A DNA stretch of 63,073 nt, filler included, from Bilabrum cf. latius (lineage: Eukaryota), in the NCBI GenBank assembly GCA_965178125.1. It is 2 parts of 2 records of this genome, joined end to end, with 100 filler letters (N's around TTAATTAATTAA, not from the genome) between each part and the next. Parts side by side here need not be neighbours in the genome. Positions count along the whole stretch, not along the records: positions 31,714 to 63,073 come from CBCXTV010000016.1; 1 more part is not named here. The stretch is one strand, 5' to 3'. Below the pieces are notes generated by a model, which worked only from the letters and a program-made list of their open reading frames with translations, did not search any database and was not told the origin of the DNA. This document shows positions 8,225-53,199 of this stretch, piece by piece. Position 1 is the first letter of the stretch, and each line of letters starts with the position of its first letter. A program made the position numbers and the translations under genes.

Positions 8225-8287
8225 GTTCTACGGCGCCTTCCGACGAGTCGGAATTCCTCCTCGTTTAGGTAGTATACGAGAGCCGGG

Positions 8288-32782: not shown

Positions 32783-33123
32783 CAGAAGAAAGGCAGCTTG
32801 ACGACGCAGTCGCTGCGACAACGGCCGCTCCCGGAGGCGCGCCGCCGAAGCCGCTCTCGACGAAAATCGACGAGCTGCGGGCGAAACAGGCGGCAATGAC
32901 AGCCGAGCGAAAGCGGGTGACAAAAGACCTCCGCAACCACGAAAAGCGACGTCGCCGTTTGAAAGCAAACGCACGTCGTCTGAGCAACGACGACCTCGCC
33001 GAGGTCATGCTCATGCGCGAGGCAAGTCGCCCGGACGCCGAGAGCGAAAAGGCCGGCGACGCAGCGTCGTCATCCGCCTCCGCGAAAAAGCCGAAAAAGA
33101 AGTCGTCCGCGAAGGAGGCGTGA
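32689..33123 (+). CDS. Small basic coiled-coil protein (B copy 1)
   Basis: MSERSEAAS...LSNDDLAEVMLMRE; homolog of 22210-22662. Confidence 0.8.
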   Translation: MSERSEAASDDERAIEAAESAPALAGDAKAVAEERQLDDAVAATTAAPGGAPPKPLSTKIDELRAKQAAMTAERKRVTKDLRNHEKRRRRLKANARRLSNDDLAEVMLMREASRPDAESEKAGDAASSSASAKKPKKKSSAKEA

Positions 33124-33827
33124 AGGCGCGCCACGCAAGCATCATATGACGACATAGTTCATGGAAGTGTTGTGGTTTGACAGGTGAATCGGAAGCATGC
33201 TATCCCGTGTGAATTTGGGTTCATTGCGCATCATGACATGGATGACTCTCAGGCGAAAGAATTGCGGCGAAAGAGACGCGCTACTGCATGAAGACCACCG
33301 GCTGACAAAAGGAGACCAGCAGACGCACCAGAGCGACACGAGAAACAAAATCGGCGAAGAGTGAAACGTCCATAAACCAGGGAGAGGAGAGAAAAACAGG
33401 CCACATCAGCCAGAATCGGAAGAAATTGGCCAGAACCGACCGAAGTCCATAAGACATCGCATTCGTAGATCTGCATCCCCCAAAATCGTTGCAAACCACC
33501 CCTTCCCGCCGACATCGGACCAGATTTGACGAAAAACGTGCGAAAATGCATAGGAGGAGAGGGGGAATGTGGGGCGGGAATGGACGGAAATCGCGAAAAT
33601 CCCCAAAAAAACCAGGAACATCGGCCCAGATGAGGTCAAAACTGTGCAAATTACCACAAAAATGCCCCCCCCAAATCCAGAGAAATCGCGAAAATCTTAG
33701 AAAAAATGGGAAAATTGGGCTAAATTCTGTGGAACAATTGCCCAAAACGAGGCGAAATGTGGCCGAAGCGTGGAAATCTCCCTAGCGCTTCGGCCCTAAA
33801 TGGTCCAAACCTAGTGTAAAATGAAGA

Positions 33828-33917
33828 AAAAAAGGGGGCCGAAGCGCCGAAGCGCTGGAAAGCGCTTTAAATATTTAAAAGCCTTTCCCAGCGCTTCTGC
33901 TTCGCCCCCCCTTTTTT
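33828..33917. other. Putative origin hairpin (B copy 1)
   Basis: About 45 bp imperfect arms centred on TTTAAAT|ATTTAAA. Confidence 0.6.
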
Positions 33918-34745
33918 AAGGGAAAATTGACCTCCAGAAAAGCAGAGGCCCAAACCAGGCAAAACCGAAAAGAAATGCCTCCAAAAAACGTGCGCGAGAA
34001 GCACGCATCGGAAAAAACAACCACTGAAAACAAGTGCCGGCCATACAATCATTAAGGGGTCCCCGTGTTGTGGATGTGGGCGCTTGCATCGTGATGGGAG
34101 AATATCGTGGGAGCGTTTGTAGTCTGTTAAGGTGTTTGCGGGAAGGAAACGAGGTCGAAAAGGAGACCTAGGTATAGGGAAGCAGGGACCCAGGGGAAAG
34201 CATGCCATGTGTCGGAAAGTGGATGAAAGAGCGTGTGACGGGCACGTGGAATCGACTTGGATCCGGCAGTGGGAATCACTCGTTCTATGTCGGGAGACGT
34301 GAGGTTCCGGTGCACATCGTTGGAAAAGGCGAGGGCGTGAGGTGAGGGTAGAGGTATAAAGAAAATCCTGGTGAGGCCGTTTGAGTCTGCGCTTCGAGGA
34401 GAAGCGAAAGGCATTTGAGGGAATTTCGGACGCGAGGTGTTCTGAATGGTTGCACGTGTGGGCCGGTGTTTCCTTTTTCGGCATGTCCTTTTTGTCGTGT
34501 GTTCCATTGACATCACGGGGTGCATACGGTAGCCTTGCGTCGCTTCACACCGCAGGAATCTGTGGAGTTCCCGGTGTCAATGCTCTCCATGTTCCCCTCA
34601 GCATGGTCACATTCGACATGGGGTCCTCTGCACAGTCCATGTGCGAGCACTCGGCGTCATGCTCTGAATCATCGTCGCTTCGTTTGCATTTTTTTTCTGT
34701 CGGAGTTGCCCAAGTGCCGAGCGGATTGTGACGCTTCGGAGTGCG

Positions 34746-36414
34746 ATGTCGTCCTCGACTGGGCAAGCTGTGGAGCATCCGACGAAGCGCCGTCGCTTTT
34801 CCGTGAAGCGACCGCCCGCGGTGGCGTCAGCGCGTGTGCCCGTGCACGAGCCGGTCTTGCCTGAGTCTCAGGCGAGCTCCGCCGCTCCGTCTGTGCACCC
34901 ATCTCCGTCTGCCGCCCAAGCCGCAGGCAGTGCTGACGGTGCGCGCCGACGCGACATTGCCCTCGGGGCTGTCGCAGATCAATCCGCGAGCAGCTCTCTG
35001 GATCACGCTGCGTACACAAAGTTGTGGCTACGCCTGTCGCGATGGGTCGTGTCGAGTGGGACGGCGGCGGAGAAGACTGTATGGGCGACCCACGGTTTAC
35101 GCCGCGAGCCCGGCAGTGTCCTGCGCGATGACCAGTGCGCGCTGCTGCGCCGTTTTCTGGATAGTCGGTCCGATCTTCCGGAATGTGTGCAGCAGGTTGG
35201 CGCGTGTCTCATCCGCGGCCACCGGTCTGGCTCCCAAGGCGTCCAAGGCGGTGCTTCTGAGAGCCGTCCCGCGACGCGTTTGTTTTTGTTGAATGGGCCA
35301 TGGGGGCTTGTGCCTTCCTTGATTTTTCAACCAGGCAACCCGGCAGTGGACGTCGACACGGTTGCGATGTCTGTGTCGTTATCGGCGTGGTTTACTGCGC
35401 TGCGTGTTGCCTTTCTTGCGTGGCTCATGCCCTTTGTGGAGCACTGGCGTGTTGTACAGTATGTGTGGTGCGCGGAAGTGTCGCCGACGACCATTCGTGC
35501 TCCCCACTCGCAAGCCCGTGTTCATTTTCACATTGCATTGCGTGCGCCCTCGGCGGTGTTAGAGTACTTCACGGGGTGTATGTTTCAAAGAATATCCTCG
35601 CCCGTTGTGTCTTTGTGCGTCGCCGAACGTGTGCGTGGTGCTGCACGCGGTTTTCAAGGGTTTTTTTTACGTGCAGGCGCCGAAGTTTGGTCGCGTAGAC
35701 GGCGGTGGAAGTGTCGAGATGTTTCATGACTATCTCGTTCAAGCCGACTGGATTATACAGTTACTCCAGTCCGGCAAAATTTCCGTTGGTACTGCGCGTC
35801 GGCTGTCTGTGCGCGTAGTGCGAAATCTCCCAAACATGCTTCGAACCTTGGCGGCTTATGAATCGGCCACATCCGAGGCGAGTTTGGAAGCGCACGTACA
35901 GGCTGTCCAAGCAGAGTTGCGAGGAGGGATGTGCCCCTTTCGAGAGATAGACGTCGTCTCCGAGTGGTTAGCGGAGTTCAACCGTCTTGCATCCCGCTAT
36001 CGCTTTTTAATTTTGGACGGCCCCTCCTGCGTCGGAAAGACGCAGTATGCATGCTCTTTGGCCCATACCGGCCATGTCTTTTTCTGTGATTGCCAACAAG
36101 CAACACAGCCCGATCTTCGGTGTTTTCGACCGCTGCATGATGAGGTGATTGTGATGGATGAGGCTTCGGCATCCTTAGTCATCCACAACAAACGCCTCTT
36201 TCAGGCGCCTGCGGAGTGGGTGTCCTTGTCCCACACGGCGACGAATATGTACAGTTATCGCCAGTGGGTTCACCGCGCGAAGATTGTTGTTTGTTGCAAC
36301 GATTGGAACGCGGGTTTAAATGTTTTGTCAGCGTCGGAGAGAGAGTGGATCCAGGACAACAGCCGGTATTATTATGCCGGTGAAGCGCTGTGGGTCCCGC
36401 GTACCGCGCTGTAA
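34746..36414 (+). CDS. rep: HUH+SF3 Rep (B copy 1; 1-bp homopolymer frameshift at ~35660)
   Basis: Same protein as 48522-50189 apart from one extra T in a T run. Confidence 0.85.
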
Positions 36415-36559
36415 TTTTCTCTTGTGATTGAATCTATATTTCGAAAGCGCGTTTCTTGGCAGGGAGAGGAACGCGTTTGCTGTGCGTCGGAGGTGCGTGT
36501 CCTGCAGACATTGTGGAGGGGAGTGTCGTCTTTGTATTTTTCGGTCGCCACATGCGGGC

Positions 36560-36861
36560 AGTATTCTGGGCCTAAATTCGTGTCCGAAACGTGGACGCGT
36601 TTTGCGATTTTCCCTGTGGGTCTCTGCCTCGTCATGGTTAACGAGGGGCGTGTTAGGCCGTCTGCCTGATCCGTGTCGGTTTCCTGCGGTCTACGTCCGT
36701 GAGAGGAGAGCGTGCAAAATTGTTGCTTGGCGGCCGCTGTGCGGACATGCGGTTTCCATGTCATGGTGTGTCCTGCAGTGAGCGGGCATCTGTGTAGACG
36801 TGCGGTCTGTGCATCATCTTGTCGCGGATGTGACGGCGGGAAAAATATTTTCTTCAATGTC

Positions 36862-36934
<73 letters not shown>

Positions 36935-36961
36935 CCCGTGCGCCCATGGTGGACTGCCGGT
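36560..36961 (+). repeat. Diverged direct copy of the element B left subterminal region (38506-38845)
   Basis: GTATTCTGGGCC...GTGGACGCGTTTTGCG...CCCTGTGGGTCT.TGCCTCGTCATGGT.AACGAGGGGCGT...GGCGGGAAAAATATTTT...CGTGCGCCCATGGT is shared. Confidence 0.8.
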
Positions 36962-38394
36962 CATTGATTTCGGGTTGTCATGACGATTTGTCGCTTGGCC
37001 ATCTCACTTTCCCATGATATTTCGTCACTAATTTCAGACCTTCCTAGATGATTTCGAGTCGTGCATTCTTGTCGGGCGGCGAAACGGCGAGGTCATGATT
37101 GCGCCAGTTGGCTTTTCGGACCCTGTCCCGTCTACCGGGCCCGTTTTAAATTGGCCGGCTTTTTTGGCGCGGTCCCGTCCGACTCGGCAACAGGTGTGCC
37201 ACACAGCCCGTCAAGGTAACTCCGCGAGAGGTACGCGGGAAGGCCCGCCACGGCCGCATCTCTGCGGACGCCCGCGTCGCAAGCGAAAGGTAGCTTCTCC
37301 TCCGCTCAGATTTTGAAGTTAAGGAACCTGTAGAAAGGCACCAGGACGCGGTCGACGTCGTCATCGTCAAACCGCAGCTCACCATGCACGACGTCTTGTA
37401 AGACGTCGCGTTCCACCTGCGTACGCACACGGCTGGCTGGCCCGACCCCCGCCCGCCCTCCGTCGCCTGCCTCCTCGTTATTGGGGTTTTTTGTTTTGCA
37501 AATACGACGTGAAGAAGGGGTCCGGACCTGGTCCTCTTGTGAAAAACCCAACTGGCGCATCCATCACCGTGTGTGTGTAAGGTAAGGTAAACTGCCGCAT
37601 GCATTGCTCCGTAGGCTGATAGAAAATGACGTGTCCATGACAGAATTTTGTTCCAAGTCGCACGAACCGAAAAATCCCCCATTTCCCTGGAAACCCTGCT
37701 TCTGGACGCGTGTTCGAATATAGATTGTCTTTTTCTCTCTACGGTCGGGAAGACGGGCGGGCGGGTGAGCGGCCGGGCGGGCGCGCGCGCGGACCGGTGG
37801 GCAGGCGGGCGGGTTAGTGGGCGTCCGGATGGGCGGTGAGGCTAGCGCGCGGCCGGGTGGGCCCGCGGGTGTGCAAGCGTGAAGGAGTAGATCGCGAGAG
37901 AGACTAGCGATTTGTTTTGGTATGGATCGCCAAGGGAAACACTGCCAACATTGCTCCGAATGGACCTAAATCGCGGAGAGGTTGTTTTCATTGCTGACGC
38001 ATGTTGCTCATTTTTTGCGGGAATCACGGTCCTGGACAATGAGTTTTGATTGCCGAAATCGGGCCGGATTTGGTCCATAGATCGCGACACTTCTGGCTAA
38101 TGGAGTCAAAGTGGACAAAGCTTCGATAAAATTCGTGAGAATCTCTGGGAATTTCTCTGACGCATGTGGCCAAATGCAGCACACTCTTCCCGGTCCGCAA
38201 AGGTGTGGCGCAGTCTACACGTAGAACGTTCTTGTGCGTTCGGTTGCTCGGTGCTTTTCCGCACCCGTGTAGTGCAGTTTGTCTGCTGGCGCCGTCTGTT
38301 ATTCTGCAGGAAAGTCGCGTGTGGCTGGGGCACTGTGTAGAGTGCCCCCCCCGGAGGTGTGCTGGTCGGCGGTCCGCGCCGCGGGCCTATTTCA

Positions 38395-38493
38395 GCGGCC
38401 GGAAAACGGCCGCAAAAAATAGAGGAAAAAAAGGGGACCCAACAGTCGGGTCCCCCATTTTTGCCCCCGGTTTTGGTGCCGTTTTCCGGCCGC
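38395..38493. repeat. TIR-TIR junction between adjacent B copies
   Basis: GCGGCCGGAAAACGGC...GGGGACCC-AA-CAG-TC-GGGTCCCC...GCCGTTTTCCGGCCGC, exactly symmetric about 38444. Confidence 0.72.
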
Positions 38494-38820
38494 GAAATGG
38501 TGGCCGTATTCTGGGCCCAATTTCGCGTCCGCCAGGTGGACGCGTTTTGCGGTCCTCCCTGTGGGTCTGTGCCTCGTCATGGTAAACGAGGGGCGTCTGA
38601 GGCAGTCTGCGTTATCCGTGTCGGTGCCCTGTGGCACAAGTCCGTCACAGGAGAGCGCGCCAAATTGTTGTCTAGCACCCGCCGTGCTGGCGTGCGGTTT
38701 TGCGGTCCTGGTGTGTCCTGTAGGGTGCGGGCATTTGTGTAGACCTGTGGTCTGTGTATGACATTGTTGCGGAAGCGAGGGCGGGAAAAATATTTTTATC
38801 TCATAGTTTCTTCTCTTTTG

Positions 38821-38845
38821 CGTGCGCCCATGGTAAGCTGCCGGT
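38821..38845 (+). promoter_or_regulatory. Dispersed conserved motif (CGC)CGTGCGCCC-N4-5-(G)AGCTGCCGGT, 7 per B unit
   Basis: Copies at 36936, 38821, 40136, 42067, 43393, 43537 and 48217, plus equivalents in the next unit. All are on + and intergenic. A regulatory role is inferred. Confidence 0.55.
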
Positions 38846-39061
38846 CCTTGATATGCGATTTTCAGGACAATACGGAGATTGGCCATGTCATTGTCCCATG
38901 TCTGCGTGGAACAGCATGAGCGTATCATGGCATTGTTTTCTCGCATGCATCTTTTCCAAGTGATCATTCATTCCTCTCCGAAATGTTGGTGCTCGCATTC
39001 AGACGTCGTTTGATTGCGTCTTTTTGTCGCCCCATCCCGAGTTTCCTCTTCATCCGTGGGT

Positions 39062-39511
39062 ATGGCGTGGTATGGAAGTGCTTCGCCCATTTCTCCGGCT
39101 GATGAAGCGGAAGAGGTGGTGGACATGCCGGCGTCCTCAAGCGCTGCTGGCGAAAAGGTGAGCGACCCGTCCGCATGGGTGCGCTCATATATGCGCTCGT
39201 GTGAAGCGCAGTACAGGAGATGGGTGCAGTCGCTCCACGACTCGAGGGACGAGGGCGTGAAATATCAGTGGTGGACAGACGCTGAGTTTCGCAAAGCCGG
39301 CGTACCGCCGCGGTTGCCGTGTGAGAGCCCTGCCTTCGGGACGGAGAAAGGGTTGCCATGGATTGTTTTCCATAAGCACCCTGATCTGGTGCCCATCGGC
39401 CACGCCGAGTGGCAAGAATTCAATCGGCGCATTCGGTGGCTCGGATGTACGCCGACCCAGGGCGTCGAACTCCGACGTCGTGCTCGCGAAGTCGGTGTCA
39501 AATGGCCGTAA
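39062..39511 (+). CDS. ORF-X (B copy)
   Basis: Homologous to A 3854-4384; first gene after the terminus in both elements. Confidence 0.8.
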   Translation: MAWYGSASPISPADEAEEVVDMPASSSAAGEKVSDPSAWVRSYMRSCEAQYRRWVQSLHDSRDEGVKYQWWTDAEFRKAGVPPRLPCESPAFGTEKGLPWIVFHKHPDLVPIGHAEWQEFNRRIRWLGCTPTQGVELRRRAREVGVKWP

Positions 39512-40540
39512 AACGCCATGACGCCTTTGTGTTCGTGACGACCGGCATGAAACAGACAGTGCCGGGCAACGCGAACTTTGTTTTGTATAGCTTGTTTTTT
39601 CAATGTATAGTGCGTGCTTGTGTCCCGCAACAAACCTTGAGCATCCGTTGTCATTGCGGTTCGGATGGAAAGATCCGTTGCCGGAGTCTGATGATGCTTA
39701 CGCAGGGCTTGTCGGACAACATGTCTGTGCAGAAGGCAATTTCATATGTTTACTCGCTCTGTCAGAATTTGGTCTTGGTGATTGTCACACGAAAAGAATT
39801 GACCGGCCGCGACCATACCGTGTGTGTGTGTGTGAAAGTGTTATCATTTTTTTGATCGATCCACCAATGTGGCTAGTCTCATTTCTCGGAAGCAGTCCAT
39901 TCGGATTTGCATGAGTTCCGTGCACGACACTGCATTGGCTGTTTTTTTCCGTCACCTTTCGTAGCCGATCACATGCTTGTGCCATCAGGGAGTCGGACGG
40001 GCAAGTGTGTCTGCATCTGTGGCGCATGTGAAAAGAAGCGCAAAGCGCGATGGAGAATGTCATTAACAATGCCTTCCTGCATTGGTATGTGAATGTTCGA
40101 GAAAGGGACTGATCATTGTTTTCTTTTTCATGTCTCGCCGTGCGCCCAAGGAGAGCTGCCGGTGGAAACAAGTTGTGCTTTCATCACGTCTTTTTTTTGC
40201 GGAGGTGCACATGGTGATGGAAACTTGCAGCTCTGATCTTCTTCCAATCTTGGTCATGCTCGTCACAGCGGTAGCATTCATTGGTACAGGCATGGTGTTT
40301 TCGCAGCAAGTGCGAGAGTGATGTTGCAGGTCACTTCCCTATGAGAAACGGGCGTTCACGCGGGGACGCTAATGAGCAGGCGGCACGGTGGACCTTCGGA
40401 GAGGCGAACAGTCGGGCGAGCGGACGGGCGGTCTTCGGGCCTAGAACCGAGCGTGAGTTATATGTGTTTCGCATGATTTTTTTCAGCGAGTGTCAGAGCG
40501 TCCCGAAACGATCCGCGCGCAATAAACCCGCGAGCGTATC

Positions 40541-41191
40541 ATGGCTTCTCGGTCGTGCGCGATTGAGGGATGCTCGAACGTCGCTGCGGTCCGCTGCTTG
40601 GCTGTCGGCGGACCTTACTGTGGGGCGCACTGCAGTTGTGAGGGACACAGCCATCGACTCTCGCGCCCCGGCGCGCGTCGTGGAGAGGGGTCACAACTCA
40701 GGCGCTCCTTGCATGGAATTCGGTATGAGGCGCTTTGGGAACTCCGTGATTGCGGCACGTATTTGGTGTATGATGAGAAGATGTTGTGCCTCGCGTACAA
40801 CATCGAATCTGTCACTGGTGCGATGAAGTTCGTGATTGCGGTGTTTGCGGCGCGTCTTGCATGGGACACGTTGCCCACGGAGCATCGCGCATGTGTCGCG
40901 GTGGCTTGGACAACGTTGTCCGAAGCGCTGGGGGCGACTCGAAGGGGTCGCATGCTCGAGAGTTTGCGGTCATCTATGAATGCCGCAGACGTTGCTGACG
41001 TCGGGATGCGAGTTGCCCGCATGTGGGCGCGGGCGTTGACTCCGATCTCGTCGTTGTCAGCGAGCTCGAGCGCGGCCTCCTCGTCGCGCGAGCGCACGCC
41101 GCCACCACTTCGGTCGTCGAGTGTTGCAGCAGCGATGGCGGAGGTAATATCGGCATGCGTACTTGTAGCGGGGACACGGCATGGCTTTTAG
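40541..41191 (+). CDS. Hypothetical protein with N-terminal Cys/His cluster (putative Zn finger)
   Basis: CAIEGC...RC..GGPYCGAHCSCEGH followed by a helical region. ATG start downstream of the conserved motif. Confidence 0.5.
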   Translation: MASRSCAIEGCSNVAAVRCLAVGGPYCGAHCSCEGHSHRLSRPGARRGEGSQLRRSLHGIRYEALWELRDCGTYLVYDEKMLCLAYNIESVTGAMKFVIAVFAARLAWDTLPTEHRACVAVAWTTLSEALGATRRGRMLESLRSSMNAADVADVGMRVARMWARALTPISSLSASSSAASSSRERTPPPLRSSSVAAAMAEVISACVLVAGTRHGF

Positions 41192-41331
41192 GAACATTGC
41201 AGTCATTCGTTTGAGTGATCTGGGTACTTTCCTCGAGCATTTTTCTTGGCCTTTTCATACGAGCGTGGAGTTTTTCTGAGGAGGCATCCACCGCGCAACA
41301 GTTTCCTTATGACAGGGAATGTCTGACATTT

Positions 41332-42035
41332 CCGGGCGGGTGGGCGGCCCGGAGTGCGGGCGCGCGGGCGGGCCTGTTCGCGGGCAGGCGGGCGGAGGAC
41401 GGGCGGGCGGGCGGGCAGGCGGGCGGGCGGGCGAGTGGTCGGGCGAGCGATCGGGTGGGTGCGCGGGCGATCGGGCGGGCGGGGGAGCGGGCAGAAAGCC
41501 GAGGGGCTATCCGGTGGAGCTGTTGGGCCGGCGAGCCCGCGGGTCGCCACGCGTACGCGCGTGGGCGCGCGCGGGTGTGCGCAAGCAGGCGAGCGCGCGC
41601 ACGCGTGGGCAGGCAGGCTCGCGGGCGGACGGGTCGGCTGGCTGTCGGACGGGCGGACGGACGGGCGGCCGGGTGGGCGGGAGCGAGCGTGCGCGAGTGG
41701 ATTGGTGTAGGCGGGCGGGCGCGCGGGCTAGCCAGCGGGTTCGCGAGCGGGCGGGCCACGGGCGGACGGAGGCGCGAGCGGGCAAACCGGCCAACGGGCC
41801 TGAGGGCCGGCGAGCGGGCTGGCGGGTGGGCGCCCGGGCGGGCCGGTGGGCGGGCCTCTGGGCGGACGCACGGTCGAGTGGGCGGGCAGGCGTGCGGGCA
41901 ATTGGGTGAAAGGGCGGGCGGGTGCACGCGGGTGGGCGGACGAAAGGGCGAGCGGGCGAGCGGTCGTACGGGCGGGCGGGCGGGCAGACGGGCGGACGGG
42001 CGAGCGGGCGGGCGCGCGGGCGGGTCGCCACGGGC
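41332..42035 (+). repeat. Strand-asymmetric (GGGC)n low-complexity tract
   Basis: Degenerate GGGC/GGAC repeats; also at 37750-37870 and 43636-44000, and in the next unit. Confidence 0.85.
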
Positions 42036-42217
42036 GGAGTGTATCCATTCAGTGGTCTTTTTTTTCCGCCGTGCGCCCTCGTGAGCTGCCGGTGTTTTGT
42101 CCAGAAATATGAATCTGAACGCGGGAAGGACCGAGCATTTTTTCTTCTTGGATTCATACCCAGGTCTCCAGCGCCTCTATATACAAAACATGGCTTGGGC
42201 CTTGGAAAGAAAAGGTG

Positions 42218-43324
42218 ATGGCGACAAGCAGCGTCGACCAGGCGTCGATCACGGAGGCGGTCGCGAGGGCGGACATTCCGGCAGAGCTGGTCTCCGAGGC
42301 GGAGATAGCGAACGCGCCGGAAATGCCCGCCGCAACGGCAAGCCGGGTGACGACTGAGAGCGGCACGACCCTAGGCGCCTATCTCATGGTCGATGAATTG
42401 CCGTCATACGCACGGCGTTTTAAGGGCATGCCTGGCGACGTTCCGCCGTGGCCGCCCACGGCCCAGAGGCCAGCCGGGCCCCTAGCTTGGCGAGGCGGTA
42501 TGGGCCGTTTCATGTGGGACGGCGTGGAGAACGCGCCGGCCCCGCACATCCGGCGGTGGCGCGGAACTAATCCAGTCATCGCTCTGGATGCTGGTCGGAC
42601 CCGAAGCTTCACTCGTTGGGTCGCCGCAGGCGGTTCGATAGGGCGACGCGACGCCCGACCGATTACAGCGGTCCATACCTTGTGGGAATGGATCGCGACC
42701 CGACCGCGGTTGGTGAATGGCATTCTTCGCGGTGCCATAGACCGCCCGGAGGGTTCTTTTTCTCCCCTCGGTTTCTATGTGCGATTCGATTTGCCCGCGG
42801 CAGACAGGATCGCCACGGATTTCGACGAGACCCGGTTCCGAACGAGCTTCCATGGTACAGCGCTGGAAGTACTTCACCGCATTGTTTTTGGCGGTCTCGC
42901 GACCGGGTGGGCTCGGAATTTTGAGGCCGGGCGGGAGTTGCAGGGAATTTATACATTCGCGCCTCAACGTGCGCATCTTTTGTCGTCGTATATATTGTAC
43001 AGTGCCCTCGACGACTCGGGGTGGTTGTATGGTCCTTTTTTAGAGGTCCGCAGTCCACACGATGATCCGCAAAAGCGGAAAACCGTCCTGCGCCGATCAG
43101 GCGGAGGGGACCGCCACCAGTGGATCTCCTACCCCGATAGCACTTTTCCCACGCATGTCTGGGTGCACATTGTGCACGTGTCAACGCTGTACTTGCATCC
43201 CGCAGACGCGGGTGTGTCTCTGTACGCGGAACCGGCATTCCAGCATTCGCTGGAAGTACACCCAGACGCAAGCTGGGAATACCTTTTGCATGCGAGTAGG
43301 CAGGCAGCGGACGTGGTTGTCTAA
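42218..43324 (+). CDS. Putative ADP-ribosyltransferase (PARP-like H-Y fold) cargo protein
   Basis: SFHGT-x6-RIVFGGL...QGIYTF...SSY...LEV...HQW pattern matches the ART/PARP catalytic scaffold. Intact and identical in both copies. Confidence 0.6.
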   Translation: MATSSVDQASITEAVARADIPAELVSEAEIANAPEMPAATASRVTTESGTTLGAYLMVDELPSYARRFKGMPGDVPPWPPTAQRPAGPLAWRGGMGRFMWDGVENAPAPHIRRWRGTNPVIALDAGRTRSFTRWVAAGGSIGRRDARPITAVHTLWEWIATRPRLVNGILRGAIDRPEGSFSPLGFYVRFDLPAADRIATDFDETRFRTSFHGTALEVLHRIVFGGLATGWARNFEAGRELQGIYTFAPQRAHLLSSYILYSALDDSGWLYGPFLEVRSPHDDPQKRKTVLRRSGGGDRHQWISYPDSTFPTHVWVHIVHVSTLYLHPADAGVSLYAEPAFQHSLEVHPDASWEYLLHASRQAADVVV

Positions 43325-44510
43325 GAAGGATACGTGTCCTCTGCTGCGATGGAATGCGATGGACTGTGATCGCGTGCATGGAAAATCCACATCGCCGTGC
43401 GCCCACGTGAGCTGCCGGTGTACCCTTGGCATGTCTCACTTGGTCAATGTTATGATGACGACATGCAGGAAATGGTGAAAGCGCGTGACGCTTCACTAGC
43501 ACGAGCTCATGCCCACGCTTCCATCTAGAGACACATCGCCGTGCGCCCACGTGAGCTGCCGGTGTCGCGTTTGCATGTGTGAGTTGCTCAATTTTCTCAT
43601 GATGGAATTCATCACAGTAAGAATTGGCATGCGACTGGGCAGGTGAGCGGGGAGCCGAGCGGGCGGGCGGACGGGCGGACGGGCCAGCGGGTGGACGGGA
43701 GGGCGGGCTAGCGGGCGGGCGGGCGGGCGGACGGCGGGGCGGACGGGCCGGTGCGCGGGCGAACGGACGGGCTTGCAGGCGGGCGGGCGGGCGCGCGAGC
43801 TGATGGACGGAATGACACGCGGGTGGGCGGGAGGGCGGGCGGGCAGGTGGGCGGGCGGGCGAGCGGGGGGGCGGGCGGGCGGACGAGCTCATGTGCGGGT
43901 AGACCAAGGGCGAACGGGAGAACGGGCGGGCGGGCAGGAGGGCCGGCGGGCGGGCGGGCGGGTGGACTTGCGGACGAGCGGGTGGGCGGGAACCAGCGGA
44001 CGCAGACTCTTTTGCAGAACGGAGTCGTTCCTTGTTCTCGTGGATTTTTGGTTGTATGATGGCGACCCCAGGCACATTCCACGAAGAAGTCGAAGCAGGA
44101 AAAGCCCAAGGTAGAGGGCGGAAGTTCACCATGGCTGAGTCCGCAATCGCGGGGAAAGGGAATCCCAAGTTCTATGATGCCGCGATTACCTAGGCCAAAC
44201 GCTTATTCCGGAAATGATCTGGGGCACGTTGGAAAAAGGGCCACAGGAGAGCAGGACTCAACATACGAGATCCGTGAAAAAAGGGCTGTACCAAAACCCC
44301 GCCGAGCATGCAGCGAAACTTGATGACGACGACGCAAATGACGAACTGTGGTTAGCGCACCCCGCAACACGAGAACCACGCACTGCAAGCGCATCCGCCA
44401 GTGCACACTTCCCTACAGGGACCTGTAACACGGCACGAAAGCCCCCCGACAGCGGCATCTTGTCTGCAGCCCTTTTCGCGAGCCGCCTCTGAAAAGCTGA
44501 GGCCCGAACG

Positions 44511-46495
44511 ATGAAAAGGTCCGCCATCACCGACGCACGTGCGCGCCGCAATGACCTCACGGATGCTTTACGCAAAATGCGGAGCGAAATCCGGGCGGAA
44601 GAGCGACGCGATGCCGAGCGTACCGCAGACACGGCGAGCGATGTTGAGGTGACCGACAAGAACTGCACACCTCGATATCGAGACACCGCGATCGTGATTT
44701 ACATGCGTGTCCCAGACAGCGGGAAGGCAGCGCAAACCTTCCTGGAAGTATCCCTCGGGCGGAAATTGGGCGTGCCCGTCAACGCGGCGAAGTTCATGAA
44801 CGTGGTGCGAGAGAAAAGTACCGCAACAAACATGAACAACGAGGCCACGACGGGATGGTGGAATCGACGACAAAGCGACGCCGAGAAGTATCTGCGCGAA
44901 AAAGATCTGGTGCAATGGATCGATGAGCAGAACCGGGGACGCGGTCTCGCGCCGAGTACTCGGACCGTCTACACACAACGCACGCGCGCTTCGGCATGCG
45001 AAAGTGTGGCCACTGCCGCTCACGACGTCCCATTGCATGCAGCGCTCCCCCCGCGAAGGAAAAAATGGATGCGTGGCTTTATGCGTCGATGGGCGCTACG
45101 CCGCGGCACGCTCCCCTCCGGGACGGGCACGACGACGGAGGAGGCGGCACGGAAGGTTCCGGCAGGAAAGAGCCCCACATTTGCCCCACCGGCGGCTCCC
45201 AAAAAATCGCCCCCCGGGCCACTTTTGCGGGCCCAGTTTGGCGGCCAGAAAATGGCCACGATTTGGGGCCCACGCATTCATTCCACCACATGGGGGGTGG
45301 CCGGATTCCGGCCGCAGAATCGGGCCCGCCAAATCGTCCCACAGACCACCGCGTTCCCGGCAAACACGAGGCAACGGCCATGTGGAAGTGGGCGAATTTT
45401 TTGGAGCACACCGTGCCGCACAACAAAACGACCGTCTTCCTCAATTTCGACGAGAGTTCGTGCCGCCTGTGGACACCGCCGAAGCCAGGTTTACTGAGTG
45501 CCCGAACACACCTCGAAGTCAGGCGCGGCCGCGTGCCGCGACAGGTGGCATCCCTCAAGAATAAGCGCACGGCTTTCTCTCTTCTCGCTTTCCTTGCAGA
45601 CAATGTGGAGATACAGAAAGCATTGCCGCAAATTCTCTTGGTGAATTCGCACACCATTTCCGCCGCTGATACGACGTGGCTCCGCGAACAAACACGGAAT
45701 TCAGGAGTTACTGTAGAGCGGCGGAAAACCGCGTGGTTGAAAGGCCCAGAACTCGGTCGCGTTCTGCGACTCGCAGGCCGCGCGTTAGAGCCATGGAAGG
45801 CGTCGCACAAATTCATTCTCGCACTCGATGCCTGCCCGACGCATTGGACAGCGAGCGTCGCACGCGCAGCCGCGGAGAGCGATATCAGAATTGTGTTCGT
45901 GCCACCATGCACGACGTCCTTCCTGCAACCACTGGATGTGCACGTCTTTCACCATTTGAAACGCGCTGCGAGAAATGGTCTCGAAGAGCTGTACATAAAA
46001 CAGCCAGTGGGGCCAATTCCGAGCAGAGATGTCGTGCGCATGTGGGCCAAAGCCACGCGGGAAGTTTTGCAGGCGCGGTGCTGGAAATTCGCGTTTCTCT
46101 CTTGTGGCTTCGGGCAAGGTCAGGAGCACCTCGGCACCCGATGCAGAGCTCGCACCGGCCTGGAAGCACCCCCAACTGTAGGACACGAGCTCCCATCGCT
46201 GGAGGAGCTCCAACTTTGTACAACAGCACGGGCACGGTTGCCGCTCGGGTGGTGGTTCCATTTGCCCGTGCGCGCGGAACGCGAAAATGCCCTTCCGGCA
46301 GCTTTTTCAGCTCTAGCGCGTCCCGAGACCGCAGCGCCAGAACTCGCCGCCCCAGACGGGGCCGCGGGCGACGCAAGCGCCTTTCGCTCGGAAGCGCCGA
46401 CATGTCCGAGCGCAGCGAGGCCGCAAGCGACGACGAGCGCGCCATCGAGGCTGCCGAGAGCGCGCCGGCTCTGGCCGGCGACGCGAAGGCCGTAG
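44511..46495 (+). CDS. pogo-like DD35D transposase; exons 44511-45155 and 45371-46495 (~589 aa)
   Basis: NFDES, LALDACPTH and FLQPLDVH with DD35D spacing. GT-AG intron 45156-45370 (AAG|GT...AG|G) joins EEAARK to ATAMWKW in frame. Confidence 0.9.
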
Positions 46496-46836
46496 CAGAA
46501 GAAAGGCAGCTTGACGACGCAGTCGCTGCGACAACGGCCGCTCCCGGAGGCGCGCCGCCGAAGCCGCTCTCGACGAAAATCGACGAGCTGCGGGCGAAAC
46601 AGGCGGCAATGACAGCCGAGCGAAAGCGGGTGACAAAAGACCTCCGCAACCACGAAAAGCGACGTCGCCGTTTGAAAGCAAACGCACGTCGTCTGAGCAA
46701 CGACGACCTCGCCGAGGTCATGCTCATGCGCGAGGCAAGTCGCCCGGACGCCGAGAGCGAAAAGGCCGGCGACGCAGCGTCGTCATCCGCCTCCGCGAAA
46801 AAGCCGAAAAAGAAGTCGTCCGCGAAGGAGGCGTGA
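46402..46836 (+). CDS. Small basic coiled-coil protein (B copy 2)
   Basis: 144 aa, overlapping the transposase stop in another frame; homolog present in A. Confidence 0.8.
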   Translation: MSERSEAASDDERAIEAAESAPALAGDAKAVAEERQLDDAVAATTAAPGGAPPKPLSTKIDELRAKQAAMTAERKRVTKDLRNHEKRRRRLKANARRLSNDDLAEVMLMREASRPDAESEKAGDAASSSASAKKPKKKSSAKEA

Positions 46837-47472
46837 AGGCGCGCCACGCAAGCATCATATGACGACATAGTTCATGGAAGTGTTGTGGTTTGACAGGTGA
46901 ATCGGAAGCATGCTATCCCGTGTGAATTTGGGTTCATTGCGCATCATGACATGGATGACTCTCAGGCGAAAGAATTGCGGCGAAAGAGACGCGCTACTGC
47001 ATGAAGACCACCGGCTGACAAAAGGAGACCAGCAGACGCACCAGAGCGACACGAGAAACAAAATCGGCGAAGAGTGAAACGTCCATAAACCAGGGAGAGG
47101 AGAGAAAAACAGGCCACATCAGCCAGAATCGGAAGAAATTGGCCAGAACCGACCGAAGTCCATAAGACATCGCATTCGTAGATCTGCATCCCCCAAAATC
47201 GTTGCAAACCACCCCTTCCCGCCGACATCGGACCAGATTTGACGAAAAACGTGCGAAAATGCATAGGAGGAGAGGGGGAATGTGGGGCGGGAATGGACGG
47301 AAATCGCGAAAATCCCCAAAAAAACCAGGAACATCGGCCCAGATGAGGTCAAAACTGTGCAAATTACCACAAAAATACCCCCCCAAATCCAGAGAAATCG
47401 CGAAAATCTTAGAAAAAATGGGGAAATTGGGCTAAATTCTGTGGAACAATTGCCCAAAACGAGGCGAAATGT

Positions 47473-47629
47473 GGCCGAAGCGTGGAAATCTCCCTAGCGC
47501 TTCGGCCCTAAATGGTCCAAACCTAGTGTAAAATGAAGAAAAAAAGGGGGCCGAAGCGCCGAAGCGCTGGAAAGCGCTTTAAATATTTAAAAGCCTTTCC
47601 CAGCGCTTCTGCTTCGCCCCCCCTTTTTT
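47473..47629. other. Putative origin of B: overlapping hairpins with GCCGAAGCG iteron-like repeats
   Basis: Hairpin 47540-47629 is centred on TTTAAATATTTAAA. An alternative 12-bp stem GCGCTTCGGCCC/GGGCCGAAGCGC also forms. Same position as the TAATATTAC hairpin in A. Confidence 0.6.
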
Positions 47630-48521
47630 AAGGGAAAATTGACCTCCAGAAAAGCAGAGGCCCAAACCAGGCAAAACCGAAAAGAAATGCCTCCAAAAAA
47701 CGTGCGCGAGAAGCACGCATCGGAAAAAACAACCACTGAAAACAAGTGCCGGCCATACAATCATTAAGGGGTCCCCGTGTTGTGGATGTGGGCGCTTGCA
47801 TCGTGATGGGAGAATATCGTGGGATCGTTTGTAGTCTGTTAAGGTGTTTGCGGGAAGGAAACGAGGTCGAAAAGGAGACCTAGGTATAGGGAAGCAGGGA
47901 CCCAGGGGAAAGCATGCCATGTGTCGGAAAGTGGATGAAAGAGCGTGTGACGGGCACGTGGAATCGACTTGGATCCGGCAGTGGGAATCACTCGTTCTAT
48001 GTCGGGAGACGTGAGGTTCCGGTGCACATCGTTGGAAAAGGCGAGGGCGTGAGGTGAGGGTAGAGGTATAAAGAAAATCCTGGTGAGGCCGTTCGAGTCT
48101 GCGCTTCGAGGAGAAGCGAAAGGCATTTGAGGGAATTTCGGACGCGAGGTGTTCTGAATGGTTGCACGTGTGGGATGCATCATGTAGGAACAGGAATGTG
48201 AATTCGTCTGGCTTTTCGCCGTGCGCCCGTTGAGAGCTGCCGGTGTTTCCTTTTTCGGCATGTCCTTTTTGTCGTGTGTTCCATTGACATCACGGGGTGC
48301 ATACGGTAGCCTTGCGTCGCTTCACACCGCAGGAATCTGTGGAGTTCCCGGTGTCAATGCTCTCCATGTTCCCCTCAGCATGGTCACATTCGACATGGGG
48401 TCCTCTGCACAGTCCATGTGCGAGCACTCGGCGTCATGCTCTGAATCATCGTCGCCTCGTTTGCATTTTTTTCTGTCGGAGTTGCCCAAGTGCCGAGCGG
48501 ATTGTGACGCTTCGGAGTGCG

Positions 48522-50189
48522 ATGTCGTCCTCGACTGGGCAAGCTGTGGAGCATCCGACGAAGCGCCGTCGCTTTTCCGTGAAGCGACCGCCCGCGGTGG
48601 CGTCAGCGCGTGTGCCCGTGCACGAGCCGGTCTTGCCTGAGTCTCAGGCGAGCTCCGCCGCTCCGTCTGTGCACCCATCTCCGTCTGCCGCCCAAGCCGC
48701 AGACAGTGTTGACGGTGCGCGCCGACGCGACATTGCCCTCGGGGCTGTCGCAGATCAATCCGCGAGCAGCTCTCTGGATCACGCTGCGTACACAAAGTTG
48801 TGGCTACGCCTGTCGCGATGGGTCGTGTCGAGTGGGACGGCGGCGGAGAAGACTGTATGGGCGACCCACGGTTTACGCCGCGAGCCCGGCAGTGTCCTGC
48901 GCGATGACCAGTGCGCGCTGCTGCGCCGTTTTCTGGATAGTCGGTCCGATCTTCCGGAATGTGTGCAGCAGGTTGGCGCGTGTCTCATCCGCGGCCACCG
49001 GTCTGGCTCCCAAGGCGTCCAAGGCGGTGCTTCTGAGAGCCGTCCCGCGACGCGTTTGTTTTTGTTGAATGGGCCATGGGGGCTTGTGCCTTCCTTGATT
49101 TTTCAACCAGGCAACCCGGCAGTGGACGTCGACACGGTTGCGATGTCTGTGTCGTTATCGGCGTGGTTTACTGCGCTGCGTGTTGCCTTTCTTGCGTGGC
49201 TCATGCCCTTTGTGGAGCACTGGCGTGTTGTACAGTATGTGTGGTGCGCGGAAGTGTCGCCGACGACCATTCGTGCTCCCCACTCGCAAGCCCGTGTTCA
49301 TTTTCACATTGCATTGCGTGCGCCCTCGGCGGTGTTAGAGTACTTCACGGGGTGTATGTTTCAAAGAATATCCTCGCCCGTTGTGTCTTTGTGCGTCGCC
49401 GAACGTGTGCGTGGTGCTGCACGCGGTTTTCAAGGGTTTTTTTACGTGCAGGCGCCGAAGTTTGGTCGCGTAGACGGCGGTGGAAGTGTCGAGATGTTTC
49501 ATGACTATCTCGTTCAAGCCGACTGGATTATACAGTTACTCCAGTCCGGCAAAATTTCCGTTGGTACTGCGCGTCGGCTGTCTGTGCGCGTAGTGCGAAA
49601 TCTCCCAAACATGCTTCGAACCTTGGCGGCTTATGAATCGGCCACATCCGAGGCGAGTTTGGAAGCGCACGTACAGGCTGTCCAAGCAGAGTTGCGAGGA
49701 GGGATGTGCCCCTTTCGAGAGATAGACGTCGTCTCCGAGTGGTTAGCGGAGTTCAACCGTCTTGCATCCCGCTATCGCTTTTTAATTTTGGACGGCCCCT
49801 CCTGCGTCGGAAAGACGCAGTATGCATGCTCTTTGGCCCATACCGGCCATGTCTTTTTCTGTGATTGCCAACAAGCAACACAGCCCGATCTTCGGTGTTT
49901 TCGACCGCTGCATGATGAGGTGATTGTGATGGATGAGGCTTCGGCATCCTTAGTCATCCACAACAAACGCCTCTTTCAGGCGCCTGCGGAGTGGGTGTCC
50001 TTGTCCCACACGGCGACGAATATGTACAGTTATCGCCAGTGGGTTCACCGCGCGAAGATTGTTGTTTGTTGCAACGATTGGAACGCGGGTTTAAATGTTT
50101 TGTCAGCGTCGGAGAGAGAGTGGATCCAGGACAACAGCCGGTATTATTATGCCGGTGAAGCGCTGTGGGTCCCGCGTACCGCGCTGTAA
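48522..50189 (+). CDS. rep: HUH+SF3 Rep, intact (555 aa), gemini/genomovirus-like
   Basis: LFLLNGPWG (motif I region), VHFHI, FYVQAPK, GPSCVGKT, IVMDE, VVCCN, WIQDNS...ALW. Colinear with A Rep. Confidence 0.9.
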   Translation: MSSSTGQAVEHPTKRRRFSVKRPPAVASARVPVHEPVLPESQASSAAPSVHPSPSAAQAADSVDGARRRDIALGAVADQSASSSLDHAAYTKLWLRLSRWVVSSGTAAEKTVWATHGLRREPGSVLRDDQCALLRRFLDSRSDLPECVQQVGACLIRGHRSGSQGVQGGASESRPATRLFLLNGPWGLVPSLIFQPGNPAVDVDTVAMSVSLSAWFTALRVAFLAWLMPFVEHWRVVQYVWCAEVSPTTIRAPHSQARVHFHIALRAPSAVLEYFTGCMFQRISSPVVSLCVAERVRGAARGFQGFFYVQAPKFGRVDGGGSVEMFHDYLVQADWIIQLLQSGKISVGTARRLSVRVVRNLPNMLRTLAAYESATSEASLEAHVQAVQAELRGGMCPFREIDVVSEWLAEFNRLASRYRFLILDGPSCVGKTQYACSLAHTGHVFFCDCQQATQPDLRCFRPLHDEVIVMDEASASLVIHNKRLFQAPAEWVSLSHTATNMYSYRQWVHRAKIVVCCNDWNAGLNVLSASEREWIQDNSRYYYAGEALWVPRTAL

Positions 50190-52082
50190 TTTTCTCTTGT
50201 GATTGAATCTATATTTCGAAAGCGCGTTTCTTGGCAGGGAGAGGAACGCGTTTGCTGTGCGTCGGAGGTGCGTGTCCTGCAGACATTGTGGAGGGGAGTG
50301 TCGTCTTTGTATTTTTCGGTCGCCACATGCGGGCAGTATTCTGGGCCTAAATTCGTGTCCGAAACGTGGACGCGTTTTGCGATTTTCCCTGTGGGTCTCT
50401 GCCTCGTCATGGTTAACGAGGGGCGTGTTAGGCAGTCTGCCTGATCCGTGTCGGTTTCCTGCGGTCTACGTCCGTGAGAGGAGAGCGTGCAAAATTGTTG
50501 CTTGGCGGCCGCTGTGCGGACATGCGGTTTCCATGTCATGGTGTGTCCTGCAGTGAGCGGGCATCTGTGTAGACGTGTGGTCTGTGCATCATCTTGTCGC
50601 GGATGTGACGGCGGGAAAAATATTTTCTTCAATGTCGTTTTTTTTTTCCCGTGCGCCCATGGTGGACTGCCGGTCATTGATTTCGGGTTGTCATGACGAT
50701 TTGTCGCTTGGCCATCTCACTTTCCCATGATATTTCGTCACTAATTTCAGACCTTCCTAGATGATTTCGAGTCGTGCATTCTTGTCGGGCGGCGAAACGG
50801 CGAGGTCATGATTGCGCCAGTTGGCTTTTCGGACCCTGTCCCGTCTACCGGGCCCGTTTTAAATTGGCCGGCTTTTTTGGCGCGGTCCCGTCCGACTCGG
50901 CAACAGGTGTGCCACACAGCCCGTCAAGGTAACTCCGCGAGAGGTACGCGGGAAGGCCCGCCACGGCCGCATCTCTGCGGACGCCCGCGTCGCAAGCGAA
51001 AGGTAGCTTCTCCTCCGCTCAGATTTTGAAGTTAAGGAACCTGTAGAAAGGCACCAGGACGCGGTCGACGTCGTCATCGTCAAACCGCAGCTCACCATGC
51101 ACGACGTCTTGTAAGACGTCGCGTTCCACCTGCGTACGCACACGGCTGGCTGGCCCGACCCCCGCCCGCCCTCCGTCGCCTGCCTCCTCGTTATTGGGGT
51201 TTTTTGTTTTGCAAATACGACGTGAAGAAGGGGTCCGGACCTGGTCCTCTTGTGAAAAACCCAACTGGCGCATCCATCACCGTGTGTGTGTAAGGTAAGG
51301 TAAACTGCCGCATGCATTGCTCCGTAGGCTGATAGAAAATGACGTGTCCATGACAGAATTTTGTTCCAAGTCGCACGAACCGAAAAATCCCCCATTTCCC
51401 TGGAAACCCTGCTTCTGGACGCGTGTTCGAATATAGATTGTCTTTTTCTCTCTACGGTCGGGAAGACGGGCGGGCGGGTGAGCGGCCGGGCGGGCGCGCG
51501 CGCGGACCGGTGGGCAGGCGGGCGGGTTAGTGGGCGTCCGGATGGGCGGTGAGGCTAGCGCGCGGCCGGGTGGGCCCGCGGGTGTGCAAGCGTGAAGGAG
51601 TAGATCGCGAGAGAGACTAGCGATTTGTTTTGGTATGGATCGCCAAGGGAAACACTGCCAACATTGCTCCGAATGGACCTAAATCGCGGAGAGGTTGTTT
51701 TCATTGCTGACGCATGTTGCTCATTTTTTGCGGGAATCACGGTCCTGGACAATGAGTTTTGATTGCCGAAATCGGGCCGGATTTGGTCCATAGATCGCGA
51801 CACTTCTGGCTAATGGAGTCAAAGTGGACAAAGCTTCGATAAAATTCGTGAGAATCTCTGGGAATTTCTCTGACGCATGTGGCCAAATGCAGCACACTCT
51901 TCCCGGTCCGCAAAGGTGTGGCGCAGTCTACACGTAGAACGTTCTTGTGCGTTCGGTTGCTCGGTGCTTTTCCGCACCCGTGTAGTGCTTCTGCAGGAAA
52001 GTCGCGTGTGGCTGGGGCACTGTGTAGAGTGCCCCCCCCCGGAGGTGTGCTGGTCGGCGGTCCGCGCCGCGGGCCTATTTCA

Positions 52083-52181
52083 GCGGCCGGAAAACGGCCG
52101 CAAAAAATAGAGGAAAAAAAGGGGACCCAACAGTCGGGTCCCCCATTTTTGCCCCCGGTTTTGGTGCCGTTTTCCGGCCGC
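52083..52181. repeat. Second TIR-TIR junction of B
   Basis: Same sequence as 38395-38493. Confidence 0.72.
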
Positions 52182-52749
52182 GAAATGGTGGCCGTATTCT
52201 GGGCCCAATTTCGCGTCCGCCAGGTGGACGCGTTTTGCGGTCCTCCCTGTGGGTCTGTGCCTCGTCATGGTAAACGAGGGGCGTCTGAGGCAGTCTGCGT
52301 TATCCGTGTCGGTGCCCTGTGGCACAAGTCCGTCACAGGAGAGCGCGCCAAATTGTTGTCTAGCACCCGCCGTGCTGGCGTGTGGTTTTGCGGTCCTGGT
52401 GTGTCCTGTAGGGTGCGGGCATTTGTGTAGACCTGTGGTCTGTGTATGACATTGTTGCGGAAGCGAGGGCGGGAAAAATATTTTTATCTCATAGTTTCTT
52501 CTCTTTTGCGTGCGCCCATGGTAAGCTGCCGGTCCTTGATATGCGATTTTCAGGACAATACGGAGATTGGCCATGTCATTGTCCCATGTCTGCGTGGAAC
52601 AGCATGAGCGTATCATGGCATTGTTTTCTCGCATGCATCTTTTCCAAGTGATCATTCATTCCTCTCCGAAATGTTGGTGCTCGCATTCAGACGTCGTTTG
52701 ATTGCGTCTTTTTGTCGCCCCATCCCGAGTTTCCTCTTCATCCGTGGGT

Positions 52750-53199
52750 ATGGCGTGGTATGGAAGTGCTTCGCCCATTTCTCCGGCTGATGAAGCGGAA
52801 GAGGTGGTGGACATGCCGGCGTCCTCAAGCGCTGCTGGCGAAAAGGTGAGCGACCCGTCCGCATGGGTGCGCTCATATATGCGCTCGTGTGAAGCGCAGT
52901 ACAGGAGATGGGTGCAGTCGCTCCACGACTCGAGGGACGAGGGCGTGAAATATCAGTGGTGGACAGACGCTGAGTTTCGCAAAGCCGGCGTACCGCCGCG
53001 GTTGCCGTGTGAGAGCCCTGCCTTCGGGACGGAGAAAGGGTTGCCATGGATTGTTTTCCATAAGCACCCTGATCTGGTGCCCATCGGCCACGCCGAGTGG
53101 CAAGAATTCAATCGGCGCATTCGGTGGCTCGGATGTACGCCGACCCAGGGCGTCGAACTCCGACGTCGTGCTCGCGAAGTCGGTGTCAAATGGCCGTAA
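52750..53199 (+). CDS. ORF-X (next B copy)
   Basis: Identical protein to 39062-39511. Confidence 0.8.
   Translation: MAWYGSASPISPADEAEEVVDMPASSSAAGEKVSDPSAWVRSYMRSCEAQYRRWVQSLHDSRDEGVKYQWWTDAEFRKAGVPPRLPCESPAFGTEKGLPWIVFHKHPDLVPIGHAEWQEFNRRIRWLGCTPTQGVELRRRAREVGVKWP

Follow-up and report, generated by a model that had tools for sequence, protein, structure and literature searches.

The locus described here raises a simple question, namely what a two-part sequence word that recurs on one strand ahead of the genes of a large repeated element does there. The window analysed is the whole 63,073-nt stretch of DNA from the eukaryote Bilabrum cf. latius (assembly GCA_965178125.1), in which two parts from two records are joined across 100 filler letters. 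It holds two elements: element A (1-31.6 kb, minus strand) and element B, which occupies the part taken from record CBCXTV010000016.1 as an array of tandem ~13.7-kb units. A preliminary description, made from the sequence alone, had reported the motif seven times per unit of element B, intergenic and always on the coding strand, and had suggested that it serves as an element-specific promoter, a processing signal or a protein-binding site.

A two-part motif in the gene gaps of element B

In register, the motif has two halves of 12 nt each, YSCCGTGCGCCC on the left and GRRCTGCCGGTS on the right, with 4-5 nt of free spacer between them. It is 28-29 nt long and GC-rich, and its two halves are clearly unlike; GW stands directly 5' of the right half and, if counted with it, leaves a free gap of 2-3 nt. 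The exact pattern CGCCGTGCGCCC-N4-5-GAGCTGCCGGT matches the 63-kb window 10 times, always on the plus strand, where 100 dinucleotide-preserving shuffles give a chance expectation of 0.00, and the second half alone, with up to one mismatch, matches 15 times against 1.85 expected. A relaxed scan allowing up to two mismatches per half recovers two weaker variants per unit, TCCCGTGCGCCC..GGACTGCCGGTC and TTGCGTGCGCCC..AAGCTGCCGGTC, and the total is then 14 sites, divided evenly between the two complete units at seven apiece (Table 1). All 14 lie on the gene strand and none on the opposite one; each is internal to the 13.7-kb unit and falls in a non-coding gap between plus-strand genes, with one site, or one duplicated pair, per gene gap and no clustering. 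The arrangement reported in the preliminary description is therefore borne out, with 10 exact matches where none is expected and every site in the sense orientation.

The canonical form, with 23 specified positions, is identical in five sites per unit, and 12 of the 13 ten-mers that recur at least three times per unit (simple repeats excluded) are pieces of it. The spacers are far less uniform, with five distinct sequences of 4 or 5 nt among the seven sites. A manual count reveals a weak dyad symmetry, in which 8 of 14 pairs match. The sites are not all independent of one another: those at 36934 and 38818 stand inside a ~420-bp paralogous block that is 78% identical, and those at 43393 and 43537 are the two copies of a 144-bp tandem duplication, so that seven sites per unit reduce to about five independent contexts. 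The flanks of the non-paralogous sites cannot be aligned, and identity is therefore confined to the motif itself.

Measured from the start of the motif to the next plus-strand start codon, the distance is 244 nt for ORF-X (ORF, open reading frame), 418 nt for the ZnF ORF, 151 nt for the 368-aa ORF, 1118 and 974 nt for the transposase and 306 nt for Rep, while one site per unit lies 458 nt downstream of the Rep stop codon. These values agree with the gene distances given earlier for ORF-X, the ZnF gene, the ORF then labelled ART, the transposase (twice), Rep and the single post-Rep site. Six of the seven sites per unit precede a gene with coding or conservation support. Among the four genes with coding neighbours on both sides, three (ZnF, 368-aa ORF and Rep) have their site closer to the downstream start than to the upstream stop, the transposase being the exception; the distance from the upstream stop codon to the site ranges from 69 to more than 1300 nt.

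The motif had also been said usually to follow a T-rich tract. Such a tract (15-18 T in the 30 nt upstream) directly precedes four of the seven sites and a short TTTT a fifth; the other two have none. The T-run beside the post-Rep site is hypervariable, with ~70 nt in unit 2 (36870-36933), 9 nt in unit 3 (50638-50646) and a shorter run in L061, a related contig described below.

Table 1. Positions of the motif sites, hairpins and structural features within the window
Feature	Position	Strand	Basis
Motif, variant (TCCC.., GGAC..), after Rep of unit 1/2; ~70-nt T-run just upstream	36934..36962	+	relaxed motif scan
Motif, variant (TTGC.., AAGC..), 244 nt before ORF-X	38818..38846	+	motif scan with mismatches
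Motif, canonical, 5-nt spacer, before ZnF ORF	40136..40164	+	exact match
Motif, canonical, 4-nt spacer, 151 nt before 368-aa ORF	42067..42094	+	exact match
Motif, canonical, copy 1 of 144-bp tandem duplication, ~1.1 kb before transposase	43393..43420	+	exact match
Motif, canonical, copy 2 of 144-bp duplication	43537..43564	+	exact match
Motif, canonical, 306 nt before conserved Rep start codon (48522)	48217..48245	+	exact match
Motif, variant, unit 3, equivalent of 36934	50647..50675	+	relaxed motif scan
Motif, variant, unit 3, before ORF-X (52750-53199)	52506..52534	+	motif scan with mismatches
Motif, canonical, unit 3, before ZnF ORF (54253-54540)	53835..53863	+	exact match
Motif, canonical, unit 3, before 368-aa ORF (55935-57041)	55784..55811	+	exact match
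Motif, canonical, unit 3, 69 nt past 368-aa ORF stop, 1118 nt before transposase start (58228)	57110..57137	+	exact match
Motif, canonical, unit 3, duplicate of 57110	57254..57281	+	exact match
Motif, canonical, unit 3, 306 nt before Rep start (62241)	61935..61963	+	exact match
Long, nearly perfect hairpin, AT-rich loop, single-stranded DNA z -7.5, ~900 nt before Rep of B	61258..61347 (47540-47630 in unit 2)	+	folding
Hairpin, z -4.05, with the window's only exact TAATATTAC, ~850 nt before Rep of A	21255..21360	-	folding, exact match
Palindromic hairpin, z -6.9, in gene-less stretch between sites 50647 and 52506	52079..52186 (38390-38500 in unit 2)		folding
Element B, 2.3 tandem units of ~13.7 kb; Rep-like, ORF-X, ZnF ORF, 368-aa ORF, DDE_1 transposase	31714..63073	+	self-comparison, ORF/Pfam scan
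Truncated unit 1, one expected motif site lost	31714 to ~36925	+	
65-bp deletion in unit 1, removing the pre-Rep motif site save its last 7 nt	34461..34462	+	unit comparison

Related copies and constraint on the half-sites

A scan for the motif in one genome per prokaryote species returned at least 125 stretches. Among the 80 loci listed, all matches are single and lie in bacterial records, except for two multi-site contigs, L061 (13,455 bp, six sites) and L023 (7,792 bp, three exact sites and one with one mismatch). Each is a copy of element B, with an identity to the window of ~95% for L061 and ~91% for L023, and L061 is almost exactly one unit long, missing only ~300 bp around the pre-Rep site. 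Both belong to a 3.8-Mb record set filed as a Dinoroseobacter metagenome-assembled genome, in which the motif occurs nine times, on L061 and L023 only, the reversed control pattern does not occur, and Rep is found only on L061. The two contigs are probably foreign DNA that was mis-binned into a bacterial bin. Relative to the window, L061 is a mosaic, near-identical over 52.1-59 kb and 3-24% different elsewhere, with breakpoints at ~52.09 kb and 59.1-59.3 kb, none of them at a motif site. The left breakpoint of the near-identical block coincides with the palindromic hairpin at 52079-52186.

To compare constraint between copies, we took the diverged sites (L061 at 50647; L023 at 53835, 55784, 57110 and 57254) together with 100-nt flanks, leaving out one flank that runs off a contig end. 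The half-sites differ at 4 of 120 positions, the spacers at 2 of 22 and the flanks at 123 of 900 (one-sided Fisher p = 2.8e-4). Without the degenerate 50647 site, the half-sites differ at 1 of 96 positions against 87 of 700 in the flanks (p = 9e-5). Change in the half-sites is thus about fourfold below that in the flanks. At the L023 counterpart of 57254, two of the four spacer letters have changed and both halves are kept, and the L061 counterpart of the weak 50647 site is nearer the consensus. Judged from these copies, both half-sites are under sequence constraint and the spacer is not.

A search of public sequencing runs listed no RNA run carrying the element, and four public runs carry the unit as DNA contigs with many variant copies. 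Contig joints and very high depth in those runs lie at G-rich simple repeats, not at motif sites. Viral contigs gave two single motif matches of identical sequence within plausible coding runs, which we take to be chance, and a Rep scan of the same contigs found no relative. Among metagenome contigs, the Rep scan found one contig of 1227 bp, whose first 312 nt are 92% identical at the DNA level and whose remainder is unrelated, and the sole trace of the motif on it is an ambiguous 10-nt string resembling a half-site. In the literature, pieces of the motif turned up, among the papers listed, only in ones that, by their titles, seem unrelated.

Element A is diverged from element B, with Rep, ORF-X and transposase at 28-38% amino-acid identity. 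A partial match to the motif had been reported ahead of its ORF-X. It lies 237 nt before the ORF-X start, a distance akin to that in B, and a stretch of 9 nt is common to it and to the flank of the pre-Rep site of B. The match is nevertheless limited to the right half, at 11 of 12 positions, and with ~1.85 one-mismatch matches expected in the window it does not rise above chance. The ORF-X upstream regions of A and B do not align past a common TGCCGGT, and no other motif recurs within element A. On the present data, the motif seems specific to the B lineage.

A putative upstream element read by a protein

The sense orientation of all 14 sites, their intergenic position and their slower change relative to the flanks partly support a functional cis signal tied to the genes. 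Our favoured reading, which we hold at about even chances, is that a protein binds the motif, which serves as a promoter or upstream element with a fixed direction. The motif would be a two-part site on the DNA duplex, recognised by a sequence-specific protein that reads it with two heads, and the free 4-5-nt spacer would fit a protein of this kind. The reader may be encoded by the element, either by the small ZnF ORF or by the N-terminal part (about residues 1-260) of the pogo/Tc5-like transposase, or it may be a host protein. One site, or a duplicated pair, would be placed before every transcription unit, on the 5' side of the point where the transcript starts, and such a shared promoter or activating element would switch the genes of the element on together. 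T-rich tracts, as seen before some of the sites, are a common feature of eukaryotic promoter regions.

Start-codon counts bear on the position of the motif relative to the transcript. Between the motif and the gene start, AUG triplets number 7 against 2.9 expected, 9 against 6.4, 2 against 2.2, 16 against 11.0 and 7 against 3.3. ATG is thus at or above expectation in all five cases, and we rejected the motif as the 5' end of ordinary mRNAs. The stretch from the motif to the gene shows no shortage of start codons, which would place the motif upstream of transcript starts and not at them.

Several observations weigh against this proposal. L061 and L023 were found via the motif scan itself, and the footprint test is therefore biased towards intact sites. 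The distance from the motif end to the start codon is highly variable, from 124 to ~950 nt, and the ~1.8 kb that follow site 50647 (and 36934) hold no ORF with a coding signature in the substitution test between copies. Domain matches in the candidate readers are faint: the Tc5 helix-turn-helix (HTH) match in the transposase, whose DNA-binding domain is not confidently recognised, has an E-value of 0.41, and the one Pfam match of the ZnF ORF has an E-value of 6.7. Searches with Foldseek and VIA gave no recognisable fold for ORF-X. Finally, a relaxed two-half scan of element A found nothing above the ~11 chance matches per 31.7 kb, and the apparent restriction to the B lineage is a point against a deeply conserved feature of the family.

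Alternative roles of the motif

A signal acting at the RNA level is the first alternative, in which the element is transcribed as a multi-gene plus-strand RNA and the motif directs cleavage, trans-splicing, 3'-end formation or a common 5' leader. Such a role would suit the placement of all genes and all 14 sites on one strand, the pyrimidine-rich tract before four of the seven sites, the AG inside the canonical motif and the site that lies just 69 nt past a stop codon. When folded as single strands, however, the seven sites are no better than shuffles (z -1.43 to +1.06), and Rfam yields nothing in the window at gathering score and nothing at any site with E up to 1, results that rule out a structured RNA or hairpin. 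The undepleted AUG triplets would be unexpected if mRNAs began at the motif, the distances from upstream stops (69 to >1300 nt) are widely scattered, and variant site 50647 has no AG inside the motif. ARAGORN detected no tRNA, and a 15-nt piece of the dinoflagellate spliced leader has no match at up to three mismatches. We therefore regard an RNA-level signal as unlikely. Among the roles suggested in the preliminary description, these results favour an upstream element that binds protein at the DNA level and argue against a structured or 5'-terminal RNA signal.

Equally unlikely, in our view, is that the motif is a binding site of Rep or of the pogo-like transposase that serves replication, partition or mobility and not transcription. 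The element does encode both a Rep-like protein with HUH and P-loop motifs and a DDE_1 transposase; pogo-type relatives of the latter bind two-part sites via two helix-turn-helix heads, and the weak dyad symmetry of the motif (8 of 14 pairs) would be in keeping with such a site. The origin-like hairpins, however, are found elsewhere. The hairpin at 61258-61347 in B (z -7.5) is a better candidate for the rolling-circle origin of Rep than the motif, and the nearest motif site is 590 nt from it. In element A, the hairpin before Rep contains an exact TAATATTAC, the nonanucleotide typical of single-stranded DNA viruses that encode Rep. There is no fold in the motif, and with strong hairpins away from the sites it is probably not a Rep origin or a set of iterons. 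None of the 14 sites is inverted and all are internal, which excludes the arrangement of a transposon terminal inverted repeat, and the sites are spread one per gene gap without clustering. Taken together, the missing fold, the distant hairpins and the lack of inverted copies argue against an origin, a structured RNA and a transposon end alike.

Sites that repeat directly, all pointing one way and spaced at one to a gene gap, within a tandem array such as rolling-circle products form, might instead mark module boundaries. The repeats would then bound cassettes, and recombination or rolling-circle start and stop would add, remove or release single-gene pieces; a length of 28-29 nt with partial dyad symmetry does resemble recombinase core sites. 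We consider this decidedly improbable. The spacers differ in sequence and in length (4 or 5 nt), which would make for poor recombination and renders a recombination core site unlikely, and scanning the ORFs brought up no recombinase family. Neither the breakpoints between the window and L061 nor the contig joints, which fall in G-rich simple repeats, lie at motif sites.

Less probable still is a functionless relic, in which duplicated segments retained at their 5' ends a short core that stayed identical through chance or gene conversion. Four of the seven sites per unit do lie within recognisable internal duplications, but three further contexts have only the motif in common, the 23 specified positions are identical in five sites per unit between flanks that cannot be aligned, and the half-sites change ~4 times less than the flanks between copies; a 28-nt tract would also be a poor substrate for gene conversion. 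Least probable of all is that the sites are start and stop points of Rep-driven rolling-circle copying, such that the integrated array releases single-gene circles, each led by the 28-nt signal with the site doubling as promoter, in the manner of a multipartite nanovirus but maintained as a single concatemer in the chromosome.

Genes and structure of the two elements

Units 2 and 3 of element B are 99.3% identical, and ~57% of one unit is non-coding. The array starts abruptly, inside a transposase gene. Truncated unit 1 looks decayed; its Rep frame is broken into two ORFs (327 and 231 aa; 34746-36414).

The ORFs downstream of the motif sites behave as real genes. Rep, the transposase, the 368-aa ORF and the ZnF ORF reveal an excess of third-position or synonymous change between copies, for the ZnF ORF on small numbers, and element A has conserved counterparts of ORF-X, Rep and the transposase. 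More distant relatives, roughly 50-60% identical, exist for Rep, ORF-X and the 368-aa ORF. The Rep-like gene encodes a conserved HFH triplet, a GPSxVGK(S/T) P-loop and an IVxDEA box. By language-model features, its product is nearest to Cressdnaviricota Rep clusters; it has no Pfam match, no sequence match in the PDB and no tblastn match in plasmid or phage collections. The nearest protein clusters of the DDE_1 transposase are pogo/Tc5/CENP-B-like and eukaryotic. The ZnF ORF is cysteine-rich and 95 aa long. For the 368-aa ORF (55935-57041), a large protein collection holds three unnamed relatives only, and with no Pfam family and weak PDB matches (E 0.33) the label ART that it had been given is unsupported. 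ORF-X (149 aa) has no Pfam match and belongs to a small family of ~10 representatives. Its model improved from a pLDDT of 48.7 with three sequences to 76.1 with 12; the latter model is all-helical and found no fold match (best Foldseek E 5.2; best VIA Z 3.8). Neither a polymerase nor a recombinase family was recognised among the ORFs scanned.

A coiled-coil-like ORF of 347 aa (59511-60554) overlaps the 3' part of the transposase (58228-60213) in another frame, and both frames match element A; it may be a frameshifted or extended C-terminus of the transposase rather than a gene in its own right. On the gene strand, (GGGC)n-type G-rich simple repeats occur at 55030-55770, 57354-57720 and 51450-51600 and give rise to long spurious ORFs in several frames. 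The tetranucleotide CATG is enriched in the non-coding parts of the 48200-61917 unit (63 against 36 expected) and not clearly so in its coding parts (30 against 25). In element A, an internal array of 2.4- and 3.3-kb repeats spans 5493-16906 as two 5.7-kb super-units that are 99% identical, and each repeat copies the 5' region of Rep-A.

Comparison with known systems

In mimivirus, the motif AAAATTGA precedes about half of the genes, and linear killer plasmids of yeast carry an upstream conserved sequence. These signals are 6-8 nt long and AT-rich, lie within ~100 nt of the start codon and are read by an RNA polymerase that the element encodes. The motif described here resembles them as one short sense-oriented word that stands ahead of most genes, in the intergenic space of a self-contained element, an arrangement that would imply coordinated expression. 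It differs in being 28-29 nt long, GC-rich and two-part, in lying 124 to ~950 nt from the starts, and in that no polymerase family was found among the element B ORFs scanned. The baculovirus hr sequences, imperfect palindromes of ~28-30 bp that are bound by IE-1 and dispersed round a circular genome, act as enhancers and origins. Their length, partial dyad symmetry, dispersed copies and presumed activating role through a bound protein are all similar, and the element B unit is probably circular in origin as well. In contrast to the hr sequences, which form tandem clusters of palindromes and function whichever way they point, each site here is single or doubled, all 14 point one way and their halves are unlike.

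The iterons of geminiviruses and nanoviruses are 5-13 nt long and abut the origin stem-loop, and nanoviruses carry one common region per gene. Element B shares with such Rep-encoding single-stranded DNA viruses a replicon that encodes Rep and repeats a conserved non-coding sequence, but its motif stands at least 590 nt from the candidate stem-loops and is itself unfolded. The two half-sites with a short free spacer also recall sites of the pogo/Tc1/mariner or CENP-B type, and element B has a pogo/Tc5/CENP-B-like DDE_1 transposase; unlike transposon ends, which are inverted repeats, no site is inverted and all are internal.

Within the literature searched on protist Rep elements, only the Replitrons proved relevant (PMC10288648). 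These eukaryotic Rep (HUH) transposons have a Rep without a helicase domain and short direct repeats at or near their ends (PMC10288648). Element B is like them a eukaryotic mobile element that encodes an HUH protein of the Rep class and carries short direct repeats as putative cis signals, and unlike them in that its Rep has a P-loop domain and its repeats are internal, one per gene gap. Among described eukaryotic Rep transposons, Replitrons come nearest. By analogy, the action of the motif would be closest to that of the gene-upstream words found in large viruses and linear plasmids, or to that of the baculovirus enhancer palindromes. What differs is its form, which is long, GC-rich, two-part and strictly directional at variable and often long distances from the genes, and its setting, a Rep-like gene and a pogo-like transposase with no recognisable polymerase.

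Implications

If the favoured reading is right, a 13.7-kb replicon that combines Rep with a transposase would carry its own regulon, with one long, specific DNA word ahead of each gene. The motif would offer a direct handle on the regulator of the element and a means to recognise further family members and gene boundaries, and could supply a very specific promoter or operator pair as a tool for an organism that is otherwise hard to work with. Virus-like coordinated expression would, moreover, occur in a Rep-encoding element far larger than the known small Rep-encoding single-stranded DNA viruses.

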